Virus record (IMG/VR): IMGVR_UViG_3300032144_000012
Span: 1-57,283 of that record
Origin: a virus
Taxonomy: Duplodnaviria; Caudoviricetes
Length of the DNA stretch: 57,283 nucleotides
Direction: 5' to 3' (one strand)
The position numbers and the translations under genes were made by a program. Below are positions 3,863-44,216 of the stretch, one piece after another. The notes beneath the pieces were generated by a model. That model did no database searches. It was not told where the DNA came from and worked only from the letters and a program-made list of their open reading frames with translations. Numbering within the stretch: position 1 is the stretch's first letter; every line of letters begins with the position of its first letter.

Positions 3863-4840
3863 ATGGCGTACGACAGCCTGACCGATCGGACTGACGCCCA
3901 GGCGCTCATCCCCGAAGAGGTCTCCCGCATCATGCTGGGCAAGGCGGTGGAGCAGTCCACCGTCCTCCAGATGTTCCGCCACGTCCCCGTCCGCAGCGCG
4001 CAGGTGCGGTTCCCGATCCTGTCCGCGCTGCCCTACGCCTACTGGGTCAGCGGCGACACCGGTCTCAAGCAGACCACCGACGCGGCCTGGACGAACAAGT
4101 ACCTGAACGTCGAGGAGATCGCGGCGATCCTGCCGATCCCGGACTCGGTCGTGGCCGACACCCAGGAGAACATCTGGGACTCGATCATGCCGCACCTCAC
4201 GGAGGCGTTCGCGCGTGTCCTCGACGAGGCTGTGTTCTTCGGTGTGAACGCGCCGTCGTCGTTCCCCGACGACATCCTCACCGCGGTCATCGCCGCGTCG
4301 AACACGGTCACCGAGGGCTCGCACAACGCCGCGGCCGGCGGGTTCTACGGCGACCTCGACGAGCTGTACGGCCTCGTGGAGGCCGACGGGTTCGAGGTGA
4401 CGGGCTTCGCGGCGGCGACGTCGGCGAAGTCGAAGCTGCGGGCGGCCCGCAACTCGCAGGGTGACCGTCTCGACGGGAACCGGGTGTCCGGTGACCTGCG
4501 GACCCTGGACGGCCTGCCGGTGAGCTACGGCATGAAGGGCCAGTTCCCGGTCGCCACGGTCAGCCAGAGCCCGAGCGACACCGACGGCGTCCGCCTGTTC
4601 GGCGGGGACTTCTCGGAGTTCGTCGTCGGCGTCCGGCAGGACATCACGATGAAGGTGCTCACCGAGGCCGTCATCCAGGACAACACGGGCGCGATCGTCT
4701 ACAACCTCGCCCAGCAGGACATGACGGCAGTGCGGCTCACGTTCCGGGTCGGCTGGCAGGTGTCGAACCGGATCAACTACTCGAACACGAACTCGTCGAC
4801 CCGGTACCCGGTCGGCGCGATCATCGTGACGGGCACCTGA
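3863..4840 (+). CDS. Major capsid protein (HK97 fold)
   Basis: ALIPEEVS start, GDFSEFVVGVRQDI and NLAQQDMTAVR motifs; AAGGAG RBS. Confidence 0.93.
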   Translation: MAYDSLTDRTDAQALIPEEVSRIMLGKAVEQSTVLQMFRHVPVRSAQVRFPILSALPYAYWVSGDTGLKQTTDAAWTNKYLNVEEIAAILPIPDSVVADTQENIWDSIMPHLTEAFARVLDEAVFFGVNAPSSFPDDILTAVIAASNTVTEGSHNAAAGGFYGDLDELYGLVEADGFEVTGFAAATSAKSKLRAARNSQGDRLDGNRVSGDLRTLDGLPVSYGMKGQFPVATVSQSPSDTDGVRLFGGDFSEFVVGVRQDITMKVLTEAVIQDNTGAIVYNLAQQDMTAVRLTFRVGWQVSNRINYSNTNSSTRYPVGAIIVTGT

Positions 4841-24112: not shown

Positions 24113-24466
24113 TCAGGCGGGGTCGGGTTTGGCCCGGTACTGAGCTTCGAGGGCAGCGATCCGGCGCTCATGGTCGGCGACCTGAGCCGGGAGGCTTGCG
24201 GCATCCCCGCCCGCGATGAAGTGCCCGATGTCCGGCACCTTCACGATCCACCCCTCACCAGTGAGCTCGTCCAGGACGCGGCGGGCCGTGGTAGTGGACA
24301 CGTCCTCGGCGGCCATCAACCCGCGTACTGAGGGCGCCGGCTTTCCGGGCGAGTAGTCGCCGTCGGCGCGGTCCGCATCGACACGGATGCGGTCGATGAT
24401 CCGGTCCGCGATCTCGCGCCACTTCGCCACGCGCTCAGTGTGCCAGCCCGGCAGTCCGATTCTCAT
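24113..24466 (-). CDS. GntR-family repressor (KorA/TraR-like)
   Basis: WREIADRI..G.Y.PG...PSVR.L....VS..TARR.L..L..EG.I....G.F winged HTH; divergent from the transfer genes. Confidence 0.85.
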   Translation of the reverse strand: MRIGLPGWHTERVAKWREIADRIIDRIRVDADRADGDYSPGKPAPSVRGLMAAEDVSTTTARRVLDELTGEGWIVKVPDIGHFIAGGDAASLPAQVADHERRIAALEAQYRAKPDPA

Positions 24467-25229
24467 CACGGCACGAGTGTAGTGGACCCGTGCGCGCACG
24501 GTGTGTGTATGCTGAGGGACGTGACGAATCACCCGACCCACGTTGAGGGAGTCCCTCAGATGAGGGCGCTCCCATGGCCGGTCTGGCTGGGCATCGGTGT
24601 CTCCCTCATCGCCGCCGCGGTCGGGTCATGGGCGGGCCTCCAGTTCCTCGCGTCCGCCACCGGCTGGCTCTGGTGGTCCTCCCACCTGCTCCCCGCATCC
24701 GTGGACATCGGCGGCGTCTCCGCTGGCTGGGTGTGGTTGCGGGGCGTCGTCACCCCTCACGCCCGGCAGTACGCCCGGCGTCTCACGTTCTTCGCGGCGA
24801 CCCTCAGCCTCGGCGGGAACGCCGTCAGCCACCTGGTTGCTGAGGGGGTCCTCGACGGTGGCGCGTGGCCCCTCATCGTCGCCGTCGGTGCCATCCCCGC
24901 CGTGATGCTCGTGGCCCTCGTCCACCTCGCCGCGCTCGTCACCGAAATCCCTCACCGGCCGGAGTCGACAGCCGTGGAACCGACCGCTCCCGCCCCTCAG
25001 GTGAGGGCGCTGGCGTCGACGCCCACACCCTCGGCCGCTCCGGCGGTGAAGCCCTCACCCGCCGCCCGGGCGAATCGGCAAGGAGGGACCCGCCAGGCGA
25101 TCGTCCTCGACATCCTCACCCGGGCGAGTGCACCCGATGAGGTCCCTCAGCCCGCACAGATCCGTTCCGACTGGAACGTCTCCCAGGCCACCGCCGAGAG
25201 GGTCCGGGCCGAAGTGCTCGCTGCCCTCA
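24252..25229. repeat. Cluster of CCCTCA/TGAGGG hexamers
   Basis: 17 copies counted by eye in about 1 kb, several arranged as inverted pairs. Confidence 0.75.
24467..24520. promoter_or_regulatory. Divergent promoters with palindromic operator
   Basis: Leftward -10 TACACT (24481-24476), rightward -10 TATGCT (24508-24513), and perfect palindrome CCGTGCGCGCACGG (24488-24501). Confidence 0.6.
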
Positions 25230-25258
25230 ACACCACCCCCACCACCCAGGAGGCATGA
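24560..25258 (+). CDS. DUF2637/Spd-like membrane protein with C-terminal HTH
   Basis: About four TM helices, SW..L...A..G..LP.SVD and SLGGNA.H motifs, Pro/Ala linker, IRSDWNVSQATAERVR HTH. Alternative start at GTG 24521. Confidence 0.78.
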   Translation: MRALPWPVWLGIGVSLIAAAVGSWAGLQFLASATGWLWWSSHLLPASVDIGGVSAGWVWLRGVVTPHARQYARRLTFFAATLSLGGNAVSHLVAEGVLDGGAWPLIVAVGAIPAVMLVALVHLAALVTEIPHRPESTAVEPTAPAPQVRALASTPTPSAAPAVKPSPAARANRQGGTRQAIVLDILTRASAPDEVPQPAQIRSDWNVSQATAERVRAEVLAALNTTPTTQEA

Positions 25259-25377
25259 CCGTGACCGACCCCACCCCCACCCGCACGGAGCCGACCGGCT
25301 TCGACAAGGCGCTCACCCTGATCGCCGCCGTGCTGATCGGCGCCGCCATTGGTGTCGTGATCGGCAACCTCTGGTGA
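25255..25377 (+). CDS. Small single-TM protein (Spd-like)
   Basis: 40 aa with TM ALTLIAAVLIGAAIGVVIG; translationally coupled. Confidence 0.6.
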   Translation: MTVTDPTPTRTEPTGFDKALTLIAAVLIGAAIGVVIGNLW

Positions 25378-25565
25378 ACGAGTTCCAGATCTTCAACGGC
25401 GACACCCCGGTCGAGAAGTTCGAACACACGACCGACCCGTACAACGCCAAACAGTGCGTTGACCTGCTGAAACGCTACGCCGACGCCAACGGCATCGACC
25501 GAGCCAAGGCCAAGGTCGTCACCTACCAGAACGGGCGGAAAGCCCGCACCTTCCGCGCCATGTGA
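25374..25565 (+). CDS. Small hypothetical protein
   Basis: GTGA overlap; GC3-rich codons. Confidence 0.6.
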   Translation: MNEFQIFNGDTPVEKFEHTTDPYNAKQCVDLLKRYADANGIDRAKAKVVTYQNGRKARTFRAM

Positions 25566-25570
25566 GCCAG

Positions 25571-25646
25571 GTGGGCACTGGGCACTGGGCACTCGGGAAC
25601 GGTGCCCTACGCGCGCAGGCGCGCGCGCGAGACCCGCAGTGCCCAC
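25571..25646. repeat. GGGCACT tandem and inverted repeats (candidate clt)
   Basis: GGGCACT x3 at 25573-25593; inverted copies GTGCCC at 25602 and AGTGCCCAC at 25638-25646. Confidence 0.6.
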
Positions 25647-25696
25647 AAACGCACCGTCCAGCACCACCCGTCAACACCAGAAGGGGAGTGGTCACC

Positions 25697-26158
25697 GTGG
25701 CATCGGGGGCGCTCTGGTTCGTGCTGTTCCTCCTCGGCTGCGGCCTGCTCGCCGCGACGCCGCGTCTCGGTTGGGCGACCGGCCGGGCGATCTCCCTGCG
25801 CCTCGCCATGCTCGTGTTCGTCGCCGCCGGAACCGTCGGCCTGTCCGGGCTCCTCGGCGACTTCCTCGACTGGGCGGTCACCTCGATCACGACGTGGGGG
25901 AACAACGCCGCTGTCGCCACGGTCGGCGCCGCCGTCATGTGGGTGGTGTGGCTGTCGCTGTGCGTGGTCTGGGCCGCCGGGTTCCTCCCGACGAAGGTCA
26001 TCCGGTTCGACCCGAACGACCTGCTGGCAGCGACCGGCCTGATCCTGCCCGCGGTCGCGGAGGCGATCCCCGGCGCGGCGGGGGACTTCTTCACCAACCT
26101 GTTCGACGCGATCGGCGAGTTCTTCGTCGACCTCGTCACCAGCTGGTTCGGGGGCTGA
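25697..26158 (+). CDS. Multi-TM membrane protein (Spd-like)
   Basis: Three to four hydrophobic helices; lies in the transfer operon. Confidence 0.6.
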   Translation: MASGALWFVLFLLGCGLLAATPRLGWATGRAISLRLAMLVFVAAGTVGLSGLLGDFLDWAVTSITTWGNNAAVATVGAAVMWVVWLSLCVVWAAGFLPTKVIRFDPNDLLAATGLILPAVAEAIPGAAGDFFTNLFDAIGEFFVDLVTSWFGG

Positions 26159-26160
26159 CC

Positions 26161-27012
26161 GTGGACCTCGTCATCGCCACCATCGTCGTCCTGTACCTCA
26201 CTGGCGGGTTCGACAGGTACACCCTGCGCGCGACCCGCGGCGCGGCCGGGTTCGTCTCGGCTGGCGCGAAGGGCGCCGCCCGGCACGTGAAGGCCGAACG
26301 CGCGAAGACCGCGAAGCAGCGCGCCCGGGAACGCGACAGGCGACACGCCCGCATGTGGGCGTCCGGGTTCTGGGGCCGCGTCGGCGTCTGCGCCGAGAAG
26401 GGTGCGTGGATCGCGGGCCGCTGGACCGCGAACGGCGTCCGCACCGCGTGGGCCGGGGCGACCGCGGCACCCGAGGGCTACACGAAGGCCGCAGACGCCG
26501 CCGTCCAGCGCAAGGCCGAGCGGAAGGCCAAGCGCGCCGAAGCGAAGAAGCGCCGGCGCGAATCAGCGGACGCCCGGTTCCTGATGGGCGACGCCGAGCC
26601 ATTCATCCCTGACACCTCCGCCGCGACCGCGGCCGAGGACGCCACCCCGGAGGAGAACCCCGTGACCGACACCACCGACATCCGCGTGAGCGAACTGACG
26701 AACGTCGGCGACCTCATCGCCTGCACCCAGCGGCTCATCTCCCACGTCGAGGCGCTGAGCGACGACACCTACCAATACATCATGGCCGCCAGCGGTCTGC
26801 CTGAGGCGCTCAGCGAGGCCGGCTTCTCGACGCGGCTCATCGCGGGCGCTGTGGAGAGCGTGCAGGAGGCGCTCCTCGACATGCGCCCACTGCTGGCCGC
26901 CCAGGAAGCCCTCAGCTCGCTGCTGGCTGCCGCGAAGGCCGCGGCTGACATCGGTGACGCCGTGGAGGCGCAGGCCGCGTCGGGCGACGCCCAGAGGTTC
27001 GTGACGGCCTGA
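26161..27012 (+). CDS. TraA-like accessory protein upstream of TraB
   Basis: N-terminal TM, basic middle, acidic helical C-domain with its own RBS/GTG at 26662. The name is assigned by position only. Confidence 0.5.
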   Translation: MDLVIATIVVLYLTGGFDRYTLRATRGAAGFVSAGAKGAARHVKAERAKTAKQRARERDRRHARMWASGFWGRVGVCAEKGAWIAGRWTANGVRTAWAGATAAPEGYTKAADAAVQRKAERKAKRAEAKKRRRESADARFLMGDAEPFIPDTSAATAAEDATPEENPVTDTTDIRVSELTNVGDLIACTQRLISHVEALSDDTYQYIMAASGLPEALSEAGFSTRLIAGAVESVQEALLDMRPLLAAQEALSSLLAAAKAAADIGDAVEAQAASGDAQRFVTA

Positions 27013-27013
27013 C

Positions 27014-28837
27014 ATGACACAGACGACCGCCGCCCCTAGGCAGGCCGAGGTTCGGGAGCCTTCCGCGTTCGCGATGCTCCCGGCGACCGTGGCCGCGCTG
27101 GCGTGGCGCACCCGCTGGCACACCGCACCTGTCACCGCCGGTGCCGTGGTGTGGGTGGCCGGATGCGCCACGCCAGAGGTCGCGGCGCTCGTCATGTCGG
27201 TGGTGTCCGGGCTCGCGTACCGCGCGGCCCGGCACCCCCGCCCCCGGAAGCGGAAGTACCTGTCCGAGCGGGAGCGGTACACCCTCGCCCTGTGGGGGAC
27301 CGCCTGCACGGCGTGGGCGGTCGCCGTCTCCGCCTTGGCACCGGAGCCGCTCTGGTCCGCTGCCGCCCTGGCCGCCCTGACCGCCTTCCCCGCGGTCAGG
27401 TGGGTCACGTCCCGTCGGGTCCGCGCCCGGAAGGTCAGCCGGGACGCCGCTAGGTACGTGACGGCGTGGGACAAGGTCGTCGCCGTCATCGGACACCTGG
27501 AGGTCCGCGCATCCCACGTCCTGCGCGACACCATCGTCGTGCCCGGTGACGGTGCCGTCAGCTTCGTCGTCCAACTCCGCACGCACGCCGAGAACGTCGC
27601 GACAGCCGAAGTGCGCAAGGCCATCGAATTGCTCTTGGACCTCCCGCACGGGGCGCTCACCCTCGCGATCGTCGGCGACAGCGTGAAGCTGCTGCGGGTC
27701 ACGATCAGCCCGAAGCACCACCTCGCCGCCGCGCCTGTGCCCTACTCCGGGCCCAAGGTCCAGCCGGACGGGCGCATCCTCATCGCCCGCACCCCCGACG
27801 GCCGGCGGGTCGGCCCGCGCGTGTTCGACAAGGACGGCGTGAAGCACATGTGGATCAACGGGGGGACGGGGACGGGGAAGTCCACTACCGCTGCGATCAC
27901 GCTCATGGCCCCCGTCATCGACGGCCACGAGTTGCTGATCTACCTCGACGGGAACGGTGGAACCTCTCTGTCCCCGGAACTCGAGCCGCTCATGACCGTG
28001 ATCGCCGAAACGCCGGAGGAGTGGCGCGCGGCGATCGATGCGTTCGGCGCCCTGCTCGACTACCGAGCGGCGACCCGGAGGCGGATCACGAGTTGGCGCG
28101 GCAAGGGCAACGAGCCGTACCTCGCCGTCCGGCTGGTCATCGAGGAGGCCCCGGAGGTCTCCCCGCAGGTCTCAGGCCGCCACCACCAGACCGTCGCACG
28201 CGCCGGACGGGTCGGCCGCAAGCTCGGCCTCGGCACCACTCAGATCAGCCAGGGCACGAACGCCGACCAGCTCGTCGGCGGCACCGCGTGGCGAATGAAC
28301 GCCACACAGACGATCATCCACCGGCCCGGCGACAGCCAGAACGCGAACAAGGCAGCAGCCAGCGCGAACACCGGCCACCTCCGCGGCGTGGACCCGATGC
28401 GCTTACCCCCCGAGGAGGGCTGGGTCGCGCTGATCGACAACGGCGTAGTAGTTCACCAGGCGCGCGTCGAGTACGCAGAGCCCCAGGAGCGAGCCGCATA
28501 CACGGCCGGGTTCACCACGCCGCAGTTCACGGACGGCGAGCGGGCCGTGGTCGAGACGATCCTCAACGCCGAGCCGGAACCCAGCGAGGAGTCGGTGGCC
28601 GAGCAGAAGACGACCCGGGAACGTCTCGTGGACGTCCTGCGCGCGCACAAGCGCATCACCCTCGGCGGGATCGCCGGGCCGGGCGGCAGCGAACGCCCTC
28701 ACGCCGAGTGCGACGCGGACGGCTGCCCCGGCTGGAACGTGTCCCGCACCCAGACATCTAGGCACCTGATCGCCCTCCAGTCCGAGGGCGTCGTCTCACA
28801 GGAGGACAAGCAATGGTTCGTCGTCTCGCCGTCGTAG
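27014..28837 (+). CDS. traB: FtsK/SpoIIIE-like conjugative DNA translocase (TraB-like)
   Basis: N-terminal TMs, Walker A GGTGTGKS, Walker B LVIEEA, R.GRKLG...ISQ, C-terminal wHTH-like domain. Confidence 0.8.
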   Translation: MTQTTAAPRQAEVREPSAFAMLPATVAALAWRTRWHTAPVTAGAVVWVAGCATPEVAALVMSVVSGLAYRAARHPRPRKRKYLSERERYTLALWGTACTAWAVAVSALAPEPLWSAAALAALTAFPAVRWVTSRRVRARKVSRDAARYVTAWDKVVAVIGHLEVRASHVLRDTIVVPGDGAVSFVVQLRTHAENVATAEVRKAIELLLDLPHGALTLAIVGDSVKLLRVTISPKHHLAAAPVPYSGPKVQPDGRILIARTPDGRRVGPRVFDKDGVKHMWINGGTGTGKSTTAAITLMAPVIDGHELLIYLDGNGGTSLSPELEPLMTVIAETPEEWRAAIDAFGALLDYRAATRRRITSWRGKGNEPYLAVRLVIEEAPEVSPQVSGRHHQTVARAGRVGRKLGLGTTQISQGTNADQLVGGTAWRMNATQTIIHRPGDSQNANKAAASANTGHLRGVDPMRLPPEEGWVALIDNGVVVHQARVEYAEPQERAAYTAGFTTPQFTDGERAVVETILNAEPEPSEESVAEQKTTRERLVDVLRAHKRITLGGIAGPGGSERPHAECDADGCPGWNVSRTQTSRHLIALQSEGVVSQEDKQWFVVSPS

Positions 28838-29294: not shown

Positions 29295-29440
29295 GCGAGC
29301 CCCTGGACGCTGTCGCGGTCGCGTACGAGGCGGTGCGCGCCGCTGAGCCCACCGAGTACGTGACGGACCCGGTCGAGGTGGCCGCCCTGATCGCCGCGTC
29401 ACCCTTTGCTCCCCGCCGGCGCCCGTGGTGGCGTAGGTGA
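29291..29440 (+). CDS. Small hypothetical protein
   Basis: GTGA overlaps at both ends. Confidence 0.5.
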   Translation: MSEPLDAVAVAYEAVRAAEPTEYVTDPVEVAALIAASPFAPRRRPWWRR

Positions 29441-30003
29441 ACGGGAAGGGCCACTACGCCCTCGGCGCGTCCGCCGGCCTGGTGTACGCGCAGCTGGCGC
29501 CGGTGACGTGGTGGCAGGGCATCCTGGCCGTCCCGGTCGCGGCGGGAGTGTCGTACGCCGCCGTGTCCCCGGACATCGACCAGTCGAAGCTCTGGCGCTG
29601 GCTGGACAAGCCCGTACCGGACGAGGCCCTCGGCAACGGCGGCCCCATGCAGCACCGGGGGGTTTCGCACTGGTGGGGGATCTTCGCTGCCCTGACGTGG
29701 GTGTGGTGGACGGCGACACCCCGCGACCTGTGGTTCGGGCTGCTGTTCGCCGTCCTCGGCGCCGTCATGGCGGGCTGGTGGTCGCACCTGGCCGCCGATG
29801 CCGTCGTCGGGCGTGCCGGTCAGGGCCGCCGCGCGGGGGTTCCGCTGCTGCCGTGGTGGGCGCACATCGGGCTCGGGTTCAAGTGCGGCGGGCCCGTCGA
29901 GCGAGCCCTCACCTACGTCGTGCCGGTAGCCGTCCTGGCCTGGTCGATCTGGCACGCCCCAATCGCCCACGACGCGTGGGCATTCACCACAGGAGGAATC
30001 TGA
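29437..30003 (+). CDS. Membrane-bound metal-dependent hydrolase (YdjM/DUF457-like)
   Basis: H near N-terminus, PDID, HRGVSH, SHL.AD and G.PLL.P motifs. Confidence 0.82.
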   Translation: MNGKGHYALGASAGLVYAQLAPVTWWQGILAVPVAAGVSYAAVSPDIDQSKLWRWLDKPVPDEALGNGGPMQHRGVSHWWGIFAALTWVWWTATPRDLWFGLLFAVLGAVMAGWWSHLAADAVVGRAGQGRRAGVPLLPWWAHIGLGFKCGGPVERALTYVVPVAVLAWSIWHAPIAHDAWAFTTGGI

Positions 30004-34752: not shown

Positions 34753-35033
34753 CCGCCGACGTGGCCGCTGACTACGCGCGACTCGTGGACCTCTCCCAGG
34801 AGCGGGAAGCGGACCGGCTCATCGCCGCGATCGAGAACGCGCCGACGTACGAGCGGTTCGCGGACGCCCTGACGGACGCCCTCACATACGCGATGTCGCT
34901 GTCCGACCGCCGCCACCTGTCGGCCGGCGCGCTGCCCCTGCTGCGGCGCATCGACGCGGCGGCCCGCGCGTGGCAGAGCAACACGCACCGGGAGGCCCTC
35001 GCCGTGCTCGCGGCGGACCTGACCGGCCCCTAG
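34749..35033 (+). CDS. Hypothetical protein
   Basis: ATGA coupling. Confidence 0.55.
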   Translation: MTADVAADYARLVDLSQEREADRLIAAIENAPTYERFADALTDALTYAMSLSDRRHLSAGALPLLRRIDAAARAWQSNTHREALAVLAADLTGP

Positions 35034-41484: not shown

Positions 41485-41819
41485 AGTCCTGCCCGCACTG
41501 CGACACCCGCATCCAGGTCACCCCCGAACACGTCGAGGAGTGCTCCCAGAACGCCGCCCGCTGGGCCCGCGTCGAAGCCATGGCCGACACCGCCACCCAG
41601 CACACCCCACACGCACCCGTCACCCCGACGCACACCACCGGGCTCTACGCCACCCTCCGGTCACACCCCCGGTCGCAGTCGGACGACCAGGCCGAGGCCA
41701 CCGTCCAGGCCCTCCTCGACCTCGGCTGGCGGCCCTGCCTCCGCGTCCCCGACACCACACCCGAACCGGCCCTTGTCGGCGCCGTACAGGACGCCCTCGA
41801 CCTCGGAGGCGTGTCGTGA
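41481..41819 (+). CDS. Hypothetical protein
   Basis: CPHC; coupled. Confidence 0.5.
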   Translation: MKSCPHCDTRIQVTPEHVEECSQNAARWARVEAMADTATQHTPHAPVTPTHTTGLYATLRSHPRSQSDDQAEATVQALLDLGWRPCLRVPDTTPEPALVGAVQDALDLGGVS

Positions 41820-42640
41820 AGCCCCCGTTCCCGTACTTCGGCGGCAAGATGCGCCTCGCCGACACCCTCATCCGGCTGATGCCCCCGCACCAGCACTACG
41901 TCGAGCCGTTCGCCGGCTCCCTCGCCGTTCTGCTCGCCAAGCCGCCCGTCCCGCACGAGACCGTCAACGACCTCGACGGCGACCTCGTCACCTTCTGGCG
42001 GGTCCTGCGGGAGCAGCCCGACGACCTGGAACGTCTGGGCGCGCTGACCCCACACTCTCGGGCAGAACACGCCGCGTGCGCAGAACCGGGTGCTGCGCCC
42101 ACCGATCTCGAGCGCGCCCGGCGGGTCTGGGTCAGGCTCAGCCAGGGCAGGGGTGGACTCATGTCCTCCGGGTGGAGGCACTACCAGCAGCCCTCAGGGA
42201 CTCTCGGGATGCCCGGATACCTGCACGGGTACGTCGGCCGGATCACACCCGCAGCTGAGCGTCTCGCCCGCGTCACCCTCGAATGCCGCCCCGCTGTCGA
42301 GGTCGTCAACGACTACGGCCGCCACGACGGCGTCCTCCTGTACGTCGACCCGCCGTACCTCGCGTCAACCCGCTCCAGCGGCGTCTACGGCGTCGAGATG
42401 GGCGGCGAAGACCAGCACCGGGAGCTCGCCGCCGCGCTGCGGGAGTGCACCGCCGCAGTCCTGCTGTCCGGCTACCCCTCACCCCTGTACGACGACCTGT
42501 ACGACGGCTGGCACCGCGTCGACATTCCCACCGCCACCGGGCAGGGCGGCGCCTGGGAAGACCGCACCGAGGTCGTCTGGTCCAACCGGCCCATCGGCGA
42601 GCCCGACCTCTTCACCCACCTCGCCGAGGTGACCGCGTGA
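41816..42640 (+). CDS. DNA adenine methyltransferase (Dam/D12 class)
   Basis: YFGGK, YVEPFAGS, ND and YVDPPY motifs. Confidence 0.93.
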   Translation: MKPPFPYFGGKMRLADTLIRLMPPHQHYVEPFAGSLAVLLAKPPVPHETVNDLDGDLVTFWRVLREQPDDLERLGALTPHSRAEHAACAEPGAAPTDLERARRVWVRLSQGRGGLMSSGWRHYQQPSGTLGMPGYLHGYVGRITPAAERLARVTLECRPAVEVVNDYGRHDGVLLYVDPPYLASTRSSGVYGVEMGGEDQHRELAAALRECTAAVLLSGYPSPLYDDLYDGWHRVDIPTATGQGGAWEDRTEVVWSNRPIGEPDLFTHLAEVTA

Positions 42641-42795
42641 ACGCCGTCGAGTTCGAAGCGCTCTGCCCCCACAGGCGCCTCGTGGTCTGGCGCGCCACCG
42701 GCGGCGGAGGCGTCACCGCCCACTCCGAACCCCGATGCCCCGCCTGGCACGACGGCAGGGCACGACTCATCGACCTCATCTGGGGGTACCAGTGA
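42637..42795 (+). CDS. Small hypothetical protein
   Basis: GTGA overlaps at both ends. Confidence 0.45.
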   Translation: MNAVEFEALCPHRRLVVWRATGGGGVTAHSEPRCPAWHDGRARLIDLIWGYQ

Positions 42796-44216
42796 CCGCC
42801 CTCCAGCACGTCTCTCTGTTCAGCGGAGTCGGCGGCATCGACCTCGCCATGCACCGCGCCGGGATCCAGACCGTCGCAGCCGTCGAGATCGACCGGGCCG
42901 CCCGCGGAGTCCTCGCCGACCAGTTCCCCCTCGTCAACCTGTTCACCGACGTCAGAGAGGTCACCGGTGACAAGCTCCGCCGTCTCGGACTCAAACCACG
43001 CAACACCATCGTCTCCGCCGGCTTCCCATGCCAAGACCTCTCCGTGGCGGGCCGTCGTCGGGGCATGGGTGAAGGCACACGCTCCGGGCTCTACTGGGAA
43101 GTCGACCGCATCCTGGCCGATTTCGCTCCCGCCTGGGTCGTGCTCGAGAACGTCCCTGGCCTCCTGTCGGCGTCCTGCGCCTGCCCTGGAGACGGCACGT
43201 GCGTGGAGCGAGCCCTCGCTGTTCGATGCGACGGAGAGACCCACGGAGTCCCTGGCGGAGCCTGCTGGGGACAGTGCATCCCCCGCCACGGCGGCGTCAT
43301 GGGTGCCGTCGTTGGGAGCCTGGGAGAACGCGGGTATGGGTTCGCCTACCGAGTGCTGGACGCTCGACACTTCGGAGTGCCCCAGCGGCGCCGCCGCGTC
43401 GTCATTGTCGGACGTCTTGGAGACGACGGGCGAGCACCTGCGCGCGTACTTCTTGAGCCCGAAGGCGTGCGCGGGAATCCTGCGCAGGGCATCACGCCGA
43501 GGACGCTCACTGCCGCCCGCGCTGGAGGCAGCACTGCGTCGAGTCGCGTCACGTCAGCCCTGACCACCAGGTCCACGACAGCCCTCGATGACCAGGGCAT
43601 CGCACAGCTCGTCGTCGGCGTCCTCGGTCAGCACTCGCACGCCCTCACCGCCGAAGGGCACGACGCATCCGAGGACGGCGCCGGTCGGGGCACGCCCATC
43701 GTCACCGTCGCCTTCGACCCGAAAGCGGGCGGAGACCGGACCTCGTCCGGCGCGTTCGAGGTCGGCACCGGCATCACACCGACGCTCAGCGGCGCCCGCT
43801 CACCCGCCGTCCTCTACGCCGCAGACATCGCCAACGCCCTCGACACCGCCCAGGGCGGGCCCGACGACAACAACTCCGCCCAGGGCGGGCACCTCGTCGC
43901 GTTCGCCGAGAACCAGAGAGGCGAACTCGTGGAATCGGCCACGGTCGGCGCACTCGCGCAGGGCGGAGGGAAACCCGGACAGGGGTACCCGGCCGTCCAC
44001 GACGGAACCATCGTCCGCCGGCTCACCCCGCTCGAATGCGAGCGCCTCCAGGGCTTCCCCGACGGCCACACCGACACCAGCTGGGGACGACCCCAGGCCG
44101 ACTCGCCCCGAGGCAAGCAGATGGGCAACGCCGTCGCCGTCCCCGTCTTCGAGTGGGTCGCGCGTCGAATCGACGCCGTCCACCGCCACCTGCTCACCGC
44201 GAAGGACGTGGCCTGA
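42792..44216 (+). CDS. C5 cytosine DNA methyltransferase
   Basis: LFSGVGG, GFPCQD, ENVPG, PQRRRR, RRLTPLECERLQGFP and QMGNAV motifs. Confidence 0.95.
   Translation: MTALQHVSLFSGVGGIDLAMHRAGIQTVAAVEIDRAARGVLADQFPLVNLFTDVREVTGDKLRRLGLKPRNTIVSAGFPCQDLSVAGRRRGMGEGTRSGLYWEVDRILADFAPAWVVLENVPGLLSASCACPGDGTCVERALAVRCDGETHGVPGGACWGQCIPRHGGVMGAVVGSLGERGYGFAYRVLDARHFGVPQRRRRVVIVGRLGDDGRAPARVLLEPEGVRGNPAQGITPRTLTAARAGGSTASSRVTSALTTRSTTALDDQGIAQLVVGVLGQHSHALTAEGHDASEDGAGRGTPIVTVAFDPKAGGDRTSSGAFEVGTGITPTLSGARSPAVLYAADIANALDTAQGGPDDNNSAQGGHLVAFAENQRGELVESATVGALAQGGGKPGQGYPAVHDGTIVRRLTPLECERLQGFPDGHTDTSWGRPQADSPRGKQMGNAVAVPVFEWVARRIDAVHRHLLTAKDVA
43336..43563 (+). CDS. Overlapping alternate-frame ORF inside the C5 methylase (beta-subunit-like; frame open from 42967)
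   Basis: GM...CWT....E.PS....SLSDVLE....YFLSPKACAGILRRASRRG..LP; GGAG 9 nt before ATG 43336. Confidence 0.6.
   Translation: MGSPTECWTLDTSECPSGAAASSLSDVLETTGEHLRAYFLSPKACAGILRRASRRGRSLPPALEAALRRVASRQP

Follow-up and report, generated by a model that had tools for sequence, protein, structure and literature searches.

Within a single kilobase, the 57,283-nucleotide virus record IMGVR_UViG_3300032144_000012 (IMG/VR; Caudoviricetes), which was analyzed at full length and is referred to here as the window, carries 17 exact copies of the six-letter word CCCTCA or its complement TGAGGG, most of them inside one gene that encodes a membrane protein with a C-terminal helix-turn-helix (HTH). The array word is under selection at the DNA level, a conclusion supported by codon-aware tests. 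The record is that of a temperate actinophage from soil, and we infer that the array is a cis-acting protein-binding locus, similar to clt or sps, of a TraB/Spd-like module for the transfer of double-strand DNA.

The hexamer array and selection on its sequence

All 17 start positions listed in an earlier note on this DNA, drawn up from the letters alone, hold an exact copy, 11 of which read CCCTCA and 6 TGAGGG on the + strand. The array and the genes that carry it are the following (TM, transmembrane; aa, amino acids), an encodable position being one at which the protein sequence allows the word.

24252..25229, both strands: array of 17 exact CCCTCA/TGAGGG hexamers, by sequence count
24513-24608 (5 sites), 24754-24875 (4) and 24949-25057 (4): sub-clusters of the array
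24252, 24329, 25144 and 25224: isolated array copies
24560..25258, + strand: array-bearing gene, whose 232-aa product has four TM helices at the N-terminus, then a linker rich in Pro and Ala, and a three-helix HTH at the C-terminus; 12 copies, in 12 of 15 encodable positions
24544..24566: composite palindrome TGAGGG-AGT-CCCTCA-GA-TGAGGG, covering a Shine-Dalgarno-like GAGGGAG and the ATG (24560)
24994..25011: second copy of the 18-nt unit CCCTCAGRTGAGGGCGCT, in the linker-coding part of the gene, 94% identical to 24553-24570
25138..25149: near-palindrome TGAGGT-CCCTCA, with one mismatch in its left half
24467..24559, no strand assigned: divergent intergenic/promoter region of 93 bp; 3 copies (24513, 24544, 24553)
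24113..24466, - strand: short GntR-family regulator of 117 aa, winged helix plus short C-terminal helix; 2 copies, in 2 of 3 encodable positions

The word occurs 56 times in the whole window, against 33.0 ± 5.9 in 100 dinucleotide shuffles (maximum 49; 0/100 reach 56). The remaining 39 copies, outside 24252-25229, amount to 0.69 per kb; about 0.7 would thus be expected in the 978 bp of the array, and the word is enriched some 25-fold within 1 kb; the background of roughly one per kb assumed beforehand was a fair estimate. These 39 copies divide into 30 on the + strand and 9 on the - strand, an imbalance attributed to coding-strand codon effects and unused as evidence. The sliding-window k-mer enrichment that had been proposed as a check was carried out for all 5- to 8-mers, each scored in the 1-kb stretch where it is most frequent, with a Poisson p for a 57-kb genome, and CCCTCA ranks first genome-wide (17 in 1 kb, p 2.9e-18). 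The best hexamer that does not overlap it reaches p 3.2e-07, and the runners-up are CCCTCA overlaps (GAGGGA, CCTCAG, TCCCTCA) or peptide repeats of the tape-measure gene, which leaves the array as the sole significant short-word cluster in the genome.

The sites are irregularly spaced (8 to 184 bp). Two of them fall within the GntR gene, in its 3' half, three are intergenic, one (24561) overlaps the ATG start codon at 24560 and 11 lie further into the gene, the final one 30 bp ahead of its stop. The array had been described as written into the membrane-HTH gene and its leader, which holds for the 12 copies in 24560-25258 but not for 24252 and 24329, which lie in the GntR gene. Beyond the hexamer, the copies have nothing in common except the one 18-nt unit present twice. 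A longer motif was rejected, as the flanks have no preference and one-mismatch variants are not enriched; these variants are at background (15 versus 11.7 expected), so that all six letters matter. A tandem-duplication origin was also rejected, since no tandem repeat underlies the array.

The three palindromes pointed out earlier (24544, 24553, 24994) are in place. The arrangement CCCTCA-N2-TGAGGG occurs twice (24553 and 24994), with P ~0.002 for two under random placement of the 17 sites, and TGAGGG-N3-CCCTCA occurs once (24544); no further exact copy of either was found in the genome. The composite palindrome at 24544-24566 is likely the strongest candidate operator. A one-mismatch TGAGGG-N3-CCCTCA, TGACGGACGCCCTCA, is seen at 34870-34884, in the early region to the right of a CI/Cro-like pair, and may be there by chance, 3.4 being expected at up to two mismatches.

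A codon-aware shuffle had been named beforehand as the refutation test, and the enrichment survives it in both versions that were run, with 0/5000 replicates reaching the 12 copies of gene 24560-25258 in either. Synonymous shuffling within the gene yields 2.52 ± 1.37 copies (maximum 8), and resampling from the codon usage of 12 confident phage open reading frames (ORFs), picked by third-position GC, yields 0.91 ± 0.89 (maximum 5). Furthermore, the in-gene copies occupy all three reading frames and consume all four CCT codons of the gene, 2 of its 3 AGG, 1 of its 2 TCA and 1 of its 5 GCT codons, in line with the earlier remark that the motif falls in different frames and draws on rare codons. 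The word fills 12 of the 15 encodable positions (80%) of the membrane-HTH gene versus 14 of 173 (8.1%) in 21 other genes (Fisher p 1.2e-9), a comparison set that includes the GntR gene with its 2 of 3. The next three ORFs of the operon have 0 of 2, 0 of 0 and 0 of 1 such positions filled, and the array ends at the stop codon of the membrane-HTH gene. The claim of selection at the DNA level is thus supported by the codon shuffles and by the 12 of 15 encodable positions. The protein, moreover, offers 15 encodable positions versus 6.8 ± 2.5 in shuffles of its own residues (0/500), a surplus which indicates that the DNA word probably shaped the protein sequence as well.

Only three relatives of the membrane-HTH protein were found, namely P0003 (69% identity), P0004 (55%) and P0005 (36%). 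The word is encodable at 22 positions in P0003 versus 8.3 ± 2.7 in residue shuffles (0/500), at 15 in P0004 versus 7.5 ± 2.6 (4/500), and at 5 in P0005 versus 7.5, this last protein having a different HTH. Ranked among the ~2000 canonical encodable hexamers, CCCTCA comes 1st of 2020 in P0003, with 22 positions versus 7.8, 3rd in the window protein, 6th of 1948 in P0004 and 1717th of 2010 in P0005. The HTH helices are conserved in P0003 and P0004, and 12 of the 22 encodable positions of the former and 11 of the 15 of the latter are unshared with the window protein. From these protein sequences, the word itself appears to be kept in close relatives while single sites come and go. Of the P0003 positions that are not shared, six belong to an N-terminal extension, probably a translated leader, in which one peptide (PS + PEG) fits CCCTCA-CC-TGAGGG. 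Queries with the protein, its alignment, P0003 or P0005 turned up no homologous locus in contigs from viruses, genomes or metagenomes, and tblastn gave no match in phages or plasmids.

The gene's own product as candidate reader

The reading that we favour, tentatively, is that the C-terminal HTH of the gene's own product reads the word. Each site would be read by one HTH of the four-TM DUF2637-like protein made from the same gene, held at the cytoplasmic face on a flexible Pro/Ala linker of ~50 aa; owing to this flexible linker, many membrane-anchored copies could bind irregularly spaced sites in either orientation. Paired CCCTCA-N2-TGAGGG sites would take two HTHs, and where such a pair covers the ribosome site and start codon of the gene itself, autoregulation would follow. 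A stretch of phage DNA would in this way be held at the membrane next to the FtsK/TraB-like pump, whose gene lies 1.8 kb downstream, the array being the functional equivalent of clt, and a single protein would join the role of SpdA2/sps (specific sites, own gene) with that of SpdB2 (a membrane DNA binder contacting TraB), two roles that are separate in Streptomyces plasmids.

We favour this reader because the array coincides with that gene, because lone, irregular sites in either orientation suit single HTHs on flexible tethers and paired sites suit two HTHs, because the two relatives in which the word seems to be kept also have conserved HTH helices, and because SpdA2/sps is a direct precedent. 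The palindromic pairing (P ~0.002) also suggests reading by a dimeric or monomeric HTH over direct repeats. The C-terminal HTH that the earlier note had announced in a DUF2637-like protein is modelled as a three-helix unit (residues ~175-225) with a predicted local distance difference test score (pLDDT) of ~90, and by the positive-inside rule the C-terminus should be cytoplasmic. A likeness to DUF2637 appears in a six-frame search (16 bits, E 2.9e-4) and in the homologs P0003 and P0005 (16.4 and 16.5 bits); 27 of the 30 Atlas clusters nearest by features carry DUF2637, and several DUF2637 clusters bear a C-terminal HTH (HTH_23 in 69-85% of members). Residues 2-135 reach a structural TM-score of 0.53 to a cluster that is 98% DUF2637, the protein's own model being poor in this part.

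SpdA2 of pIJ101 binds palindromes inside spdA2, and these sites are removable by synonymous recoding (PMC4170104). The earlier note was right that SpdA2 binds palindromes, which moreover lie inside its own gene, but not in calling it a membrane protein: it is a 135-aa DNA-binding protein with an N-terminal binding region, not described as a membrane protein in the Results and Discussion of that paper (PMC4170104). The sps site is the 12-bp palindrome CGTCACGTGACG, with or without the central T, present in 1-3 copies, and SpdA proteins measure 117-163 aa, have a conserved DNA-binding region at the N-terminus and lack a membrane part (PMC4170104). As with SpdA2/sps, the window sites lie inside a gene of a transfer or stability region, and here they fill it, the product of that gene being a candidate binder; unlike SpdA2/sps, the window has 17 hexamers and a 232-aa four-TM protein with a C-terminal HTH. 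Our scan recovers both experimentally shown sps palindromes in pIJ101, used as a control, and the sps word has no exact copy in the window and 5 within two mismatches versus 13.4 expected, none of them in the array.

The membrane part recalls SpdB2 of pSVH1, which PMC4447253 describes as a four-TM integral membrane protein that binds double-strand DNA non-specifically and contacts TraB, with homologues reported on actinophages. In architecture, both are four-TM membrane proteins of a transfer operon; SpdB2 differs in having 409 aa and a coiled coil and in its binding, which is described as non-specific.

Several points weigh against reading by the HTH of the gene's own product. Six base pairs make a very short site for an HTH, and 11 of the 17 sites are without a partner half-site. 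The densest part of the array is where the operator of a GntR regulator of TraR/KorA type is expected; likewise, a pump whose winged helix reads sequence must have a target, and the sole significant array fits a TraB-type reader equally. The argument from conservation concerns proteins only, is partly inherited through homology and is silent on the GntR and pump genes in those contigs. The DUF2637 label that the gene had been given is not sustained by Pfam, in which the match to PF10935 (15.6 bits, E 0.015) is below the cut-off of 22.8 bits. Finally, the full-length model of the protein is poor (mean pLDDT 53.5), and a fold search with it returned nothing at E <= 0.001.

The pump, the GntR regulator and other explanations

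The module runs in the order divergent short GntR gene, array-bearing gene, two small ORFs, 156-aa gene, 283-aa gene and 607-aa FtsK-like gene. The genes downstream of the array are listed below.

27014..28837, + strand: FtsK/SpoIIIE-type DNA translocase of 607 aa with TraB architecture
26161..27012, + strand: 283-aa protein that has a single hydrophobic segment at the N-terminus, a basic stretch rich in Lys, Arg and Ala and an acidic C-terminus; no family match reached the cut-off
25688..26158, + strand: hydrophobic protein of 156 aa, with what appear to be several TM segments; no family match
25374..25565, + strand: 63-aa ORF; no family match
25255..25377, + strand: 40-aa ORF from the ORF list, with a hydrophobic stretch that suggests one TM segment; overlaps the preceding stop codon

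The TraB-type pump to which the earlier note refers lies in the same operon and is borne out by an FtsK fold with N-terminal helices and a C-terminal winged helix. In its model (pLDDT 87.8), N-terminal helices at 22-133 precede the motor domain, whose Walker A is GGTGTGKS, and the winged helix at the C-terminus is made of helices at 525-590 and strands at 594-603; Foldseek matches the model to the FtsK motors 6t8o and 2iut and to TcpA 6o1x with E 1e-12 to 1e-14. The pump's own Pfam FtsK score is sub-threshold (18.9 versus 24). An exhaustive search with the pump gave 104 representatives at E <= 0.001; a word-index search missed the pump query itself, and its blank is no evidence of novelty. In an alignment of the window protein with P0007-P0040 (34 of the 104, the partial P0006 and weaker matches being left out), 11 of the 35 proteins match Pfam FtsK_SpoIIIE (E <= 0.001) and 10 or 11 match winged-helix families (IclR/MarR-type). 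The pump had no match in phages, plasmids or viral contigs, and PHROGs and NCBIfam gave none for the membrane-HTH protein, the pump or their neighbours.

It is possible, though somewhat unlikely, that the array is clt proper, in which case the pump's C-terminal winged helix would read it and the hexameric pump would assemble on the site clusters and translocate the phage DNA. A TraB-type pump is present in the same element, the genome's sole significant short-word cluster lies within its operon, and the three sub-clusters hold 4-5 sites per ~100 bp. TraB proteins are described as reading clustered short repeats through their winged helix, as for the 8-bp GACCCGGA of pSVH1, in clusters of four, and the 7-bp TGACACC of pWTY27, in four copies (PMC4447253, PMC5133688, PMC3583192). 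The earlier note had invoked this binding of clustered short repeats, and the clustering stands; the described sites, however, are direct 8-bp repeats, whereas the window array is of mixed orientation with palindromes. More generally, the known TraB sites, as these sources give them, are direct repeats of 7-9 bp (9-bp in pJV1), in 4-9 copies over 50-200 bp.

The array shares with clt/TraB sites its nature as a short-word cluster near or inside transfer genes, and with clt-bearing Streptomyces plasmids the FtsK-like pump with a C-terminal winged helix and the divergent GntR regulator. On the other hand, its word has 6 bp, and the 17 copies are spread over 1 kb, lie in either orientation, form palindromes (P ~0.002) and run through a whole coding sequence, and the element is a phage; nor does reading by the pump give a reason for the array to stop at the membrane gene's stop codon. 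In addition, the recognition helix differs in P0006, the closest pump homolog. The TraB word of pSVH1 is unclustered in the window, with 13 dispersed copies. In function the array would resemble clt or sps, but it fails defining features of both in the length of its word and in the orientation and number of the copies, and the type of protein is different too.

Plasmid neighbourhoods give a further comparison. The actinomycete integrative and conjugative element pMR2 and plasmid pNA4-1 have the same neighbourhood of divergent GntR gene, DUF2637 gene and FtsK-like gene, and Tra of pIJ101 has FtsK_SpoIIIE and C-terminal MarR_2 matches, the same parts as the window pump; SpdB of pIJ101 has no DUF2637 match. 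Of the 28 GACCCG copies in pMR2, 11 are concentrated at 3976-4714, over the 3' half of the DUF2637 gene and the next two small ORFs, and all of these are on the + strand. This GACCCG(G) cluster resembles the TraB word of pSVH1 and speaks for reading by the pump; but 6 of its 8 in-gene copies share one frame (Asp-Pro), and it may therefore be a peptide repeat. The DUF2637 protein of pMR2, searched in plasmids, finds only itself. Around the start of the 623-aa DUF2637 gene of pNA4-1 (2651-2967 and 4290-4479), CCGTTTCG occurs seven times, three of them intergenic and four at a 21-bp period in the gene's 5' end, and inverted copies lie within 21-bp repeats near its 3' end. A Streptomyces cellulosae plasmid (4676-5652) has 34 CCGTACG, 16 of them as CCGTACGG, at the 3' end of a 608-aa gene in the DUF2637 position; nearly all are in one frame, which suggests a peptide repeat. 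It is thus not rare for this gene position to carry a short-word cluster; the plasmid cases are weaker than the window array, and those of pMR2 and the S. cellulosae plasmid are weak analogies because their copies are mostly in one frame.

Reading by the pump and reading by the GntR regulator are not mutually exclusive. An operator array of Kil-Kor type, in which GntR would bind the divergent-promoter palindromes and extra half-sites would help to silence a toxic transfer operon in the lysogen, is unlikely. The winged helix of GntR scores 36.2 bits, above the cut-off of 27, and its gene is divergent from the transfer operon with symmetric repeats between the two genes; the layout is that of pIJ101 korA/tra and pSVH1 traR/spdB3, where TraR is described as binding repeats upstream of the first spd gene. 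Site density is highest in the intergenic region (4 sites in 54 bp), the ribosome site and ATG lie under a palindrome, the two-fold symmetry of the 14-bp unit suits a dimer, and the GntR gene itself uses 2 of its 3 encodable positions. However, repressors need few operators and not 12 sites over 700 bp of coding sequence at 80% saturation, and 11 of the sites are lone half-sites. A GT...AC core is typical of many GntR operators, and the array word has none. A simple consensus scan for sigma-70 promoters and terminators found none.

Two explanations do without a docking protein and are together very unlikely: the hexamers may be words of an enzyme of exact specificity (modification, restriction, BREX-type or phage methyltransferase), or a by-product of protein constraint. 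The enrichment of the exact hexamer alone (single-mismatch variants 15 versus 11.7) and the N6-adenine and C5-cytosine methyltransferases that the phage encodes are compatible with the former, and the protein's own enrichment in compatible peptides with the latter. Yet clustered nuclease recognition sites would harm the phage and no known reason ties a methylation word to one gene, while a protein-level cause can explain neither the rare codons at 12 of 15 compatible positions nor the copies in non-coding DNA or in the gene on the opposite strand. A role at the RNA level, with CCCUCA/UGAGGG pairing in the mRNA that would, for example, hide the ribosome site and AUG and tune translation or stability, is the least probable of all, for although the leader has a possible fold in which UGAGGG-AGU-CCCUCA masks the Shine-Dalgarno-like sequence and GAUGAGGG pairs with CCCUCAUC at 24603, leader folding has z = -1.22 (17/200 shuffles as good) and the whole mRNA z = -0.42 (8/20), the + strand RNA has 11 CCCUCA versus 6 UGAGGG, the array reaches into the antisense GntR gene, and no Rfam family reaches threshold, with one sub-threshold chance match.

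The phage, its module and what they may mean

The window is the entire, linear virus record, 83% complete by CheckV, and the stretch is present in one soil-metagenome DNA run, possibly the one from which it came, with no RNA run listed; no sequence variants were seen among the contigs of that run, in which the source contig stands alone. Its phage features, which the earlier note had not recognised as such, comprise a holin-like gene, a tyrosine integrase, the CI/Cro-like pair and a structural arm whose portal has at most 39% identity to Gordonia phage portals, and no replication or partition gene was identified in the record. The plasmid-type module sits between the lysis and integration genes. 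A precedent for a phage with Tra-dependent transfer is the plasmid-phage pZL12 of Streptomyces, an actinophage-type element whose conjugal transfer is reported to need a major tra gene (PMC3583192; title of Zhong et al. 2010, cited in PMC4487206). pZL12 is an autonomously replicating plasmid-prophage with ParAB, whereas the window phage has a tyrosine integrase and a CI/Cro-like switch.

Taken at its fullest, the reading in which the membrane-HTH protein binds its own gene would give a temperate phage a conjugation-type route: by binding the array, the protein would lock the phage DNA to the membrane where it is made and hand that DNA to the TraB-like pump, and naked double-strand DNA would pass between hyphal compartments or cells without virions. 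We regard this scenario as doubtful. If it is true, the transfer system's missing sequence-specific DNA receptors would be the DUF2637-HTH proteins that actinomycete integrative elements commonly encode; according to PMC9513070, clt has yet to be described for pSAM2-type integrative elements. The locus bears on the role of the widespread DUF2637 membrane proteins found beside TraB-like pumps, and as a candidate pair of site and binder it is unusually clean, with an exact six-letter word, 17 copies and three HTH candidates within 5 kb. Furthermore, a TraB-type transfer module with a likely cis site inside an integrating temperate phage bears on the mixing of phage and conjugative lifestyles in mycelial actinomycetes. 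In open-access text, no paper was found that deals with a DUF2637 gene carrying a hexamer array or with an integrating phage carrying clt.

Some minor features of the record may be added. The two methyltransferase genes are adjacent, a D12-class N6-adenine enzyme at 41540-42640 and a C5-cytosine enzyme at 42735-44216, and a gene for a YdjM-family inner-membrane protein (43.3 bits) lies at 29437-30003, between pump and integrase. Within the operon, TGGGCAC is repeated 3.1 times in tandem at 25572-25593 and followed by an inverted GGGCACT at 25638-25644, with a palindrome of G and C only between them; this region, just upstream of the gene that begins at 25688, may serve as a further operator or as an internal terminator of the operon.

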